4,312 bases of DNA from NCBI RefSeq assembly GCF_003334315.1, contig NZ_QOWR01000101.1; one strand, written 5' to 3'. The stretch comes from Escherichia coli. GTDB taxonomy: Bacteria > Pseudomonadota > Gammaproteobacteria > Enterobacterales > Enterobacteriaceae. The translations under genes and the position numbers were made by a program. Below, piece after piece: positions 214 through 2,204 of the stretch. How positions within the stretch are numbered: the first letter of the stretch is position 1; each line of letters starts with the position of its first letter. A model generated the notes under the pieces. The model saw only the letters and a program-made list of their open reading frames with translations, searched no databases and was not told the origin of the DNA.

Positions 214-1242
214 ATGAACCACTCCTTAAAACCCTGGAACACATTTGGCATTGATCATAATGCTCAGCACATTGTATGTGCCGAAGACGAACAACAACTA
301 CTCAATGCCTGGCAGCATGCAACCGCAGAAGGGCAACCCGTTCTTATTCTGGGTGAAGGAAGTAATGTACTTTTTCTGGAAGACTATCGCGGCACGGTGA
401 TCATCAACCGGATCAAAGGTATCGAAATTCATGATGAACCTGATGCGTGGTATTTACATGTAGGAGCCGGAGAAAACTGGCATCGCCTGGTAAAATACAC
501 TTTGCAGGAAGGTATGCCTGGTCTGGAAAATCTGGCATTAATTCCTGGTTGTGTCGGCTCATCACCTATCCAGAATATTGGTGCTTATGGCGTAGAATTA
601 CAGCGAGTTTGCGCTTATGTTGATTGTGTTGAACTGGCGACAGGCAAGCAAGTGCGCTTAACTGCCAAAGAGTGCCGTTTTGGCTATCGCGACAGTATTT
701 TTAAACATGAATACCAGGACCGCTTCGCCATTGTAGCCGTAGGTCTGCGTCTGCCAAAAGAGTGGCAATCTGTACTAACGTATGGTGACTTAACTCGTCT
801 GGATCCTACAACAGTAACGCCACAGCAAGTATTTGATGCGGTGTGTCATATGCGCACCACCAAACTCCCTGATCCAAAAGTGAATGGCAATGCCGGTAGT
901 TTCTTCAAAAACCCTGTTGTATCTGCCGAAACGGCTAAAGCATTACTGTCACAATTTCCAACAGCACCAAATTACCCCCAGGCGGATGGTTCAGTAAAAC
1001 TGGCAGCAGGTTGGCTTATCGATCAGTGCCAGCTAAAAGGGATGCAAATGGGTGGGGCTGCGGTGCACCGTCAACAGGCGTTAGTTCTCATTAATGAAGA
1101 CAATGCAAAAAGCGAAGATGTGGTGCAACTGGCACACCATGTAAGACAAAAAGTGGGTGAAAAATTTAATGTCTGGCTTGAGCCTGAAGTCCGCTTTATT
1201 GGTGCATCAGGTGAAGTGAGCGCAGTGGAGACAATTTCATGA
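214..1242 (+). CDS. murB: UDP-N-acetylenolpyruvoylglucosamine reductase (MurB), 342 aa, FAD-dependent peptidoglycan precursor synthesis.
   Basis: 342-aa ORF beginning [18 protein letters not shown]..., which matches my recollection of E. coli MurB in sequence and length; AGGA at 202..205, 8 nt upstream of ATG 214; stop TGA 1240..1242. Confidence 0.97.
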
Positions 1243-2204
1243 AGGATAACACCGTGCCACTGAAATTAATCGCGCTGTTAGCGAATGGCGAATTTCACTC
1301 AGGTGAGCAGTTGGGTGAAACGTTAGGAATGAGCCGGGCGGCTATTAATAAACACATTCAGACACTGCGTGACTGGGGCGTTGATGTCTTTACCGTTCCG
1401 GGTAAAGGATACAGCCTGCCTGAGCCTATCCAGTTACTTAATGCTGAACAGATATTGGGTCAGCTGGATGGCGGTAGTGTAACTGTGCTGCCAGTGATTG
1501 ACTCCACGAATCAGTACCTTCTTGATCGTATCGGAGAGCTTAAATCGGGCGATGCCTGCGTTGCAGAATACCAGCAGGCTGGCCGTGGTCGCCGGGGTCG
1601 GAAATGGTTTTCGCCTTTTGGCGCAAACTTATATTTGTCGATGTTCTGGCGTCTGGAACAAGGCCCGGCGGCGGCGATTGGTTTAAGTCTGGTTATCGGT
1701 ATCGTGATGGCGGAAGTATTACGCAAGCTGGGTGCAGATAAAGTTCGTGTTAAATGGCCTAATGACCTCTATCTGCAGGATCGCAAGCTGGCAGGCATTC
1801 TTGTGGAGCTGACTGGCAAAACCGGCGATGCGGCGCAAATAGTCATTGGAGCCGGGATCAACATGGCAATGCGTCGTGTTGAAGAGAGTGTTGTTAATCA
1901 GGGGTGGATCACGCTGCAGGAAGCGGGGATCAATCTCGATCGTAATACGTTGGCGGCCATGCTAATACGTGAATTACGCGCGGCGCTGGAACTCTTCGAA
2001 CAAGAAGGATTGGCACCTTATCTTTCGCGCTGGGAAAAGCTGGATAATTTTATTAATCGCCCAGTGAAACTTATCATTGGTGATAAAAAAATATTTGGCA
2101 TTTCACGCGGAATAGACAAACAGGGCGCTTTATTGCTTGAGCAGGATGGAATAATAAAACCCTGGATGGGCGGTGAAATATCCCTGCGTAGTGCAGAAAA
2201 ATAA
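1239..2204 (+). CDS. birA: Bifunctional biotin-[acetyl-CoA-carboxylase] ligase and biotin operon repressor (BirA), 321 aa.
   Basis: 321-aa [50 protein letters not shown]... with an N-terminal winged helix-turn-helix and the biotin-binding GRGRRGR motif (about 1581..1601); ATG 1239..1241 overlaps the murB stop (ATGA); GGAG at 1227..1230; stop TAA 2202..2204. Confidence 0.97.

Follow-up and report, generated by a model that had tools for sequence, protein, structure and literature searches.

The last codons of murB in Escherichia coli also carry the ribosome-binding site (RBS) of birA, and the stop codon of the first gene overlaps the start codon of the second. To judge from related species, both this 4-nt overlap and the Shine-Dalgarno (SD) element upstream of it are clearly held by selection, with a conservation far beyond chance. 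We further consider it rather likely that birA translation depends, at least partly, on the translation of murB, i.e. that the two genes are translationally coupled.

The overlap as such is already known. It is annotated by RefSeq, it is entered as a -4 pair in supplementary file 3 of Huber et al. 2023 (PMC10666635), and the class to which it belongs is well studied; an earlier sequence-only reading of this DNA had rightly called the arrangement a known one. A literature search on the phrase 'murB-birA' found no paper. The existence of a -4 overlap at this place is unremarkable as a chance event. This configuration is the commonest in E. coli, in which 707 of the 2,987 unidirectional pairs lie between -8 and +6 (Huber et al. 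2023, PMC10666635), and an overlap of exactly -4 was found in 8 of the 57 same-strand neighbouring coding sequence pairs in two arbitrary 50-kb stretches (100 kb) of K-12. The murB-birA pair is one among hundreds of E. coli -4 overlaps and adds no new principle. The details that are new, namely a frozen GAG codon, neutral switching between ATG and GTG starts, and GTG starts found only beside an intact SD core, belong to a known kind of thing.

Organization of the locus

The DNA analysed here, referred to as the window, is a stretch of 4312 nt with the gene order rrnB terminator–murB–birA–coaA–tRNAs–tufB (Table 1). Over its whole length the window matches several E. coli chromosomes at 100% identity, and a match was present in 5,426 of the 5,426 complete E. 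coli genomes of the collection. In RefSeq, an identical strain is annotated with 23S-5S rRNA, followed by murB, birA, coaA (opposite strand), tRNA-Thr/Tyr/Gly/Thr and tuf, and four tRNAs were detected in the window by Rfam. Matches were also found at 59 plasmid places, which may be vector-borne copies. Both proteins matched known structures over their full length: MurB matched PDB 1MBB (E=3e-234), with the C-terminus ...AVETIS included, and BirA matched PDB 1BIA (E=8e-210), with the N-terminus MKDNTVPL included.

Table 1. Coordinates of the features of the window that are discussed in the text.
Feature	Position	Strand	Source
Terminator hairpin and T-run, 3' of the 5S rRNA gene	94..120	+	sequence aaggccatcc-tgac-ggatggcctt-ttt
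murB, UDP-N-acetylenolpyruvoylglucosamine reductase, 342 aa	214..1242	+	ORF list, RefSeq, PDB 1MBB
SD element for birA, GTGGAG, core GGAG at 1227-1230	1225..1230	+	sequence, conservation, anti-SD duplex
ATGA, birA start (1239-1241) over murB stop TGA (1240-1242)	1239..1242	+	sequence
birA, bifunctional biotin-protein ligase / bio operon repressor, 321 aa	1239..2204	+	ORF list, RefSeq, PDB 1BIA
GC-rich hairpin between convergent birA and coaA	2208..2227	.	terminator scan and sequence
coaA	2233-3183	minus	RefSeq annotation

The window starts in the spacer 3' of the 5S rRNA gene. The terminator found there lies about 95 nt 5' of murB and bounds the murB-birA unit upstream. We take this hairpin and T-run to be rrnB T2, a terminator that is present in many cloning vectors; it was absent from the + strand output of the terminator scan. 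With regard to the other end of the unit, the palindrome between birA and coaA was called by the scan on the - strand, with 8 pairs of which 6 are GC. On the + strand it lies 4 nt 3' of the birA stop and has a poor T-tail, a good T-tail being found on the coaA side only. This palindrome probably ends the murB-birA transcript, possibly as a bidirectional terminator shared with coaA. The mechanical ORF of coaA, on the - strand, reaches a TTG at 3339 (368 aa), the RefSeq start being the ATG at 3183 (316 aa), and the upstream extension is probably untranslated. In the tRNA cluster 5' of tufB, the spacer between tRNA-Tyr and tRNA-Gly (3711-3829) measures about 119 nt, compared with 6-8 nt for the other tRNA spacers, and carries no feature in the RefSeq record used.

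At the junction, the 3' end of murB reads GCA GTG GAG ACA ATT TCA TGA (A V E T I S stop), and the reading frame of birA is -1 relative to murB. The sequence-only reading had described a birA ATG that overlaps the murB TGA and a GGAG embedded in the last murB codons. Its coordinates for the overlap proved exact and agree with RefSeq, which annotates the same 4-nt overlap in a strain identical to the window and, in K-12 MG1655, places the end of murB at 4173085 and the start of birA at 4173082. The GGAG core does sit where it had been placed, and is made up of the third base of Val338 (GTG) and the whole of Glu339 (GAG); 8 nt lie between its last G and the A of the birA ATG. According to the ORF list, position 1239 is the earliest possible start in the birA frame after the preceding in-frame stop. 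Three further E. coli junctions retain GTGGAGAC[A/G]ATTTCATGAAGG; one belongs to a K-12 strain, and the other two come from matches that rank with the most divergent.

With both genes on the same strand, the pair belongs to the co-directional class of -4 stop/start overlaps (ATGA/GTGA). Its distance of -4 nt lies within the range of coupled pairs, which overlap or are separated by no more than about 10 nt (Huber 2023, PMC10666635), and, as in coupled pairs, the SD (GGAG) is located inside the upstream gene at a suitable distance from the start. The duplex between the birA SD and the anti-SD amounts to -6.4 kcal/mol, which is among the top 5% of the 15-nt windows across murB and birA; the RBS of murB itself is weaker (-4.3 kcal/mol). 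This difference favours an alternative in which the two genes share a transcript but the SD and start codon of birA attract ribosomes de novo, whether or not murB is translated, and the overlap is compact packing, as in bioBF. The ease with which the commonest of all arrangements arises speaks in the same direction. We regard such independent initiation as possible, if somewhat unlikely, for the reasons given in the following sections.

In the murB frame, the next in-frame TGA is found at 1261-1263, seven codons past 1240, so that readthrough or loss of the TGA at 1240 would end at a close backup stop inside birA. A programmed -1 frameshift that would fuse MurB to BirA was also considered and rejected: GAG ACA ATT TCA TGA contains no X XXY YYZ heptamer, and the spacer is not conserved.

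Selection on the end of murB

The loci of birA were collected from 80 Enterobacterales species (L002-L081), with 78-99% BirA identity. Upstream sequence was readable in 79 of them; L059 was cut off and was left out. The sequence-only reading had proposed to check whether the overlap is conserved in related bacteria, and it is: the murB stop TGA lies at offset +1 of the birA start (NTGA) in all 79 readable species. In one of these loci, that of Citrobacter koseri NCTC10786 (L007, upstream of 2656), the murB frame is open over 154 codons only, versus about 342 elsewhere, which reflects a disrupted murB or else a frameshift introduced by sequencing or assembly.

For a codon alignment of murB and birA, 78 sequences were used (the window and 77 loci), and third-position changes were counted on a neighbour-joining tree. 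Synonymous sites are saturated across this set, the median nucleotide distance being 0.37. Where the amino acid is conserved (399 codon columns), the third position changed 22.3 times on average over the tree. Glu339 is the sole column among the 399 in which the third base never changed, and it is GAG in 78 of 78 sequences. For each of the 20 other conserved glutamate codons, 11-25 changes were counted, with a mean of 17.4, and the share of species with GAG was only 18-71%. Under a simple Poisson expectation, the probability of zero changes at Glu339 would be about 3e-8. The neighbouring codon, Val338, is GTG in 61 of the 71 species that have a valine there. Edits or markers at the 3' end of murB need care, since changes to Val338-Glu339 that look synonymous strike the ribosome-binding site of birA.

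The overlap itself shows a similar pattern. Positions +2 to +4 of the junction underwent no change on the tree. In contrast to these, position +1 (window 1239), which doubles as the synonymous third base of the last murB codon, is A in 49 and G in 30 of the 79 species, i.e. about 38% of the starts are GTG. It switched between A and G some 15 times, the neutral mean of two-fold sites being 15.6. The second codon of birA is AAA or AAG in 72 species, AGA or AGG in 7 and CGN in none, so that the A completing the TGA is preserved. Bases -8 to -6 and -3 to -1 of the junction vary freely among the species. The choice of start codon is associated with the SD core: GTG starts were found exclusively beside an intact GGAG (30 of 30 species), and in the 11 species with a core degraded to AGAG or TGAG the start is always ATG (Fisher p=0.005, without correction for phylogeny).

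Conservation of the SD is predicted equally well by independent initiation and by coupling. If birA were initiated independently, however, the murB stop would drift freely, yet the -4 geometry is fixed across the 79 species. Moreover, where BirA has an arginine at codon 2, only the rare AGR codons are used, by which the TGA is retained.

Overlaps in distant relatives

The homologous-protein search gave near-identical BirA sequences only. Three of the BirA sequences (P0002, P0006 and P0010), 98-99% identical to E. coli BirA, are 405-520 aa long and carry additional Pfam domains (PF02839, PF07686 and PF00169); they resemble engineered fusions of BirA that have made their way into sequence databases. 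Eight distant homologues, with 39-60% identity, had instead to be drawn from a 50% representative library, and their contigs were retrieved.

In 8 of these 8 relatives the start of birA, as placed by automatic gene prediction, lies inside the end of an upstream ORF on the same strand, with an overlap of 4-25 nt and no spacer. This overlap too is at odds with a stop that drifts freely under independent initiation. The distance is -4 in L085 (GTGA, downstream of murB) and in L089 (ATGA), -8 in L087 (downstream of murB) and in L090, and -13 and -14 in L083 and L092, respectively, both downstream of murB. It is -17 in L082 (1866-3017), where a gene for an MFS transporter is inserted between murB and birA, and -25 in L091 (1211-3025), where an M61 peptidase is encoded upstream and coaX downstream. 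Most of the eight have a GGAG-like motif 6-9 nt upstream of birA.

In two of the eight (L082 and L091), the overlapping partner is not murB, and the ORFs upstream of birA belong to at least three families among the relatives (MurB, MFS transporter and M61 peptidase). As the overlap persists under genes other than murB, it seems to be a property of birA rather than of the partnership between murB and birA. The link between cell-wall synthesis and biotin that had been read into the overlap appears weak in this light: the products form no complex, and other lineages can have a different gene upstream of birA. The idea that the overlap enforces the stoichiometry of a heteromeric complex was rejected, given that MurB-BirA is marked 'CMPLX not' in supplementary file 3 of Huber et al. 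2023 (PMC10666635) and that BirA amounts to about 0.25-0.5 of MurB rather than 1:1. The COG-pair table of the same study lists birA-coaX, with a mode of -4, and nuoN-birA, with a mode of -1, as recurrent tight pairs (PMC10666635).

A more general reading of these gene orders, and of an SD that is frozen in Enterobacterales while the start codon switches neutrally between ATG and GTG, is that BirA dosage would be set by the obligatory restart of ribosomes leaving any upstream gene, across Gammaproteobacteria at large. We consider this doubtful. If it were true, the overlap would be a low-noise, promoter-free dosage device with no link specific to murB, and the level of BirA that it fixes would in turn set the biotin regulatory switch.

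Transcript and protein levels

The overlap leaves no room for a terminator between murB and birA. In the transcription-unit map of Dickeya dadantii, the co-transcription of murB and birA is marked as validated, no transcription start site (TSS) is listed in murB, and the internal TSSs of the unit lie several kb downstream of birA. The published supplements that were searched for E. coli TSS or long-read data on murB-birA yielded none.

These observations bear on the possibility that a separate promoter inside murB yields a birA-only transcript, which would give most of the BirA and render the overlap irrelevant to expression. Weak promoters do escape consensus scans. Against such a promoter, the consensus scan found no sigma-70-like site on the + strand within murB, and the synonymous-rate profile revealed no constrained synonymous cluster besides codons 4-13 at the 5' end of murB and the junction. 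The D. dadantii map also argues against it, as does the fact that MurB and BirA share the response sector S' in the proteome study of Mori et al. 2021. Taken together, an internal promoter is a most improbable source of the bulk of BirA.

With regard to protein abundance, BirA amounts to about 0.25-0.5 of MurB by mass fraction in Mori et al. 2021, a value that varies with the quantification algorithm and that comes from Dataset EV6 (7 calibration samples × 4 algorithms), which yields a ratio and is no test of co-variation across conditions. The ratio and the common sector fit co-expression with BirA sub-stoichiometric, and they are compatible with coupling and with independent initiation alike. 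The list of Burkhardt 2017 gives a translation efficiency of 1.01 for murB and does not include birA.

Folding of the junction

Structure unmasking is one classical mechanism of coupling (Saito et al. 2020, PMC7538156). At murB-birA, this would mean that an mRNA hairpin hides the RBS of birA and is opened only by ribosomes at the end of murB, as in L11-L1 and in MS2 coat-replicase. In a fold of a 125-nt construct, 9-11 of the 20 nucleotides of the initiation region are indeed paired in the minimum-free-energy structure. The other results argue against a hairpin. The consensus fold of 38 species computed with RNAalifold had an energy of about 0, and neither compensatory pairs nor covariation were seen at the junction. 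The 121-nt junction fold is no more stable than its shuffles (z=-0.70) and leaves the SD and the start in an open loop. Opening the birA RBS would cost about 6 kcal/mol, less than the background of the transcript, and the initiation region is slightly more accessible than average, at the 80th percentile in the window and at a median of the 68th percentile across species. No conserved hairpin over the downstream RBS was thus found at murB-birA, and we regard unmasking as very unlikely. The same accessibility and the same lack of a conserved masking structure count in favour of independent initiation.

Huber et al. attribute strict coupling to local structure that blocks de novo initiation. For calibration, five pairs of Huber 2019 and murB-birA were folded in the same geometry (the last 99 nt and the first 30 nt). 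The opening energies were 8.5, 4.4 and 2.8 kcal/mol for the strictly coupled pairs, 8.0 kcal/mol for the partially coupled pair, 8.2 kcal/mol for the uncoupled pair and 6.2-6.5 kcal/mol for murB-birA. As these energies fail to separate the strict, partial and uncoupled pairs, the value of murB-birA is uninformative, folding cannot decide coupling, and the prediction of coupling from RNA folding was rejected. A structure blocking de novo initiation was not found at murB-birA, accessibility being in itself a weak criterion on this five-pair calibration.

Proposed mechanism and significance

Several studies have measured coupling at comparable junctions. In Huber et al. 2019, who also measured mRNA, four of five native E. 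coli -4 pairs were coupled, three of them strictly and menDH to about 60%, whereas bioBF was uncoupled (PMC6728339). In four of the five, reinitiation fell by 60-100% once the SD had been removed (PMC6728339). Coupling requires an overlap or a very short distance (Huber 2023, PMC10666635), and it collapsed when the stop was shifted about 20 nt away (Huber et al.). Since four of the five native -4 pairs are coupled, coupling is a reasonable default for murB-birA, and this base rate speaks against independent initiation. The bioBF pair is a precedent for the opposite outcome, and it implies that the ATGA geometry alone is no guarantee of coupling. Saito, Green and Buskirk 2020 obtained coupling ratios of 1.7-7 for classical pairs (PMC7538156). 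Depletion of the ribosome recycling factor left coupling unchanged in their study, also genome-wide for overlapping pairs, and they argued that genes in E. coli are coupled chiefly by a route other than reinitiation (PMC7538156), which favours independent initiation at murB-birA as well.

Some degree of coupling is the most probable reading, in view of a geometry that stays at -4, of the overlap that persists in distant relatives and of how often the native pairs measured by others were coupled. We propose that murB and birA would be translated from a single mRNA on which birA has no leader of its own. The RBS of birA lies within the final codons of murB, and its AUG shares two bases with the UGA of murB. 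In the most likely mechanism, a ribosome that ends MurB at this UGA would be held by the pairing of SD and anti-SD and restart at the overlapping AUG (GUG in other species), i.e. by termination-reinitiation. Extra direct initiation probably takes place at the same exposed SD; given that this element is strong, exposed and conserved, de novo initiation may supply part or all of BirA. The output of BirA would then be constitutive and sub-stoichiometric, at roughly a quarter to half of MurB.

BirA, the only biotin-protein ligase of E. coli, doubles as sensor-repressor of the bio operon, and where the biotin switch is set depends in part on how concentrated BirA is in the cell. If BirA is tied to the translation of MurB, this would explain how a steady low level of the regulator is kept without a promoter of its own or autoregulation.

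Comparison with known systems

The pairs hyfH-hyfI, astD-astB, ydbH-ynbE and menD-menH resemble murB-birA in that both genes are on the same strand, the overlap is ATGA and the SD lies in the upstream coding sequence. In three of these four pairs the products work together in one system or complex; MurB and BirA form no complex. The coupling of the four pairs by termination-reinitiation was shown by experiment (Huber et al. 2019, PMC6728339), while murB-birA is known here from its sequence and has no conserved blocking structure.

The uncoupled pair bioB-bioF, from the biotin operon of E. coli, shares the ATGA geometry with murB-birA. Like murB-birA, where SD and start fold into an open loop, it has no extended double-stranded region around its initiation site (Huber et al. 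2019, PMC6728339). In contrast to birA, with its conserved GGAG (-6.4 kcal/mol), the SD of bioF is very weak (-2.0 kcal/mol).

In the classical pairs trpB-trpA, galT-galK, prfA-prmC, rpmI-rplT and rplK-rplA, the downstream start coincides with the upstream stop or adjoins it, as in murB-birA, and both cistrons share a single mRNA, as they probably do in murB-birA. These are the pairs for which coupling ratios were measured by Saito et al. 2020 (PMC7538156). The coupling of rplK-rplA operates via RNA structure, of which no such evidence was found at murB-birA.

Finally, the pairs birA-coaX and nuoN-birA of other bacteria are similar to murB-birA in that birA is tight or overlapping with its neighbours. 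They differ in the partners involved, as in Enterobacterales birA is preceded by murB and followed by coaA (type I) on the opposite strand.
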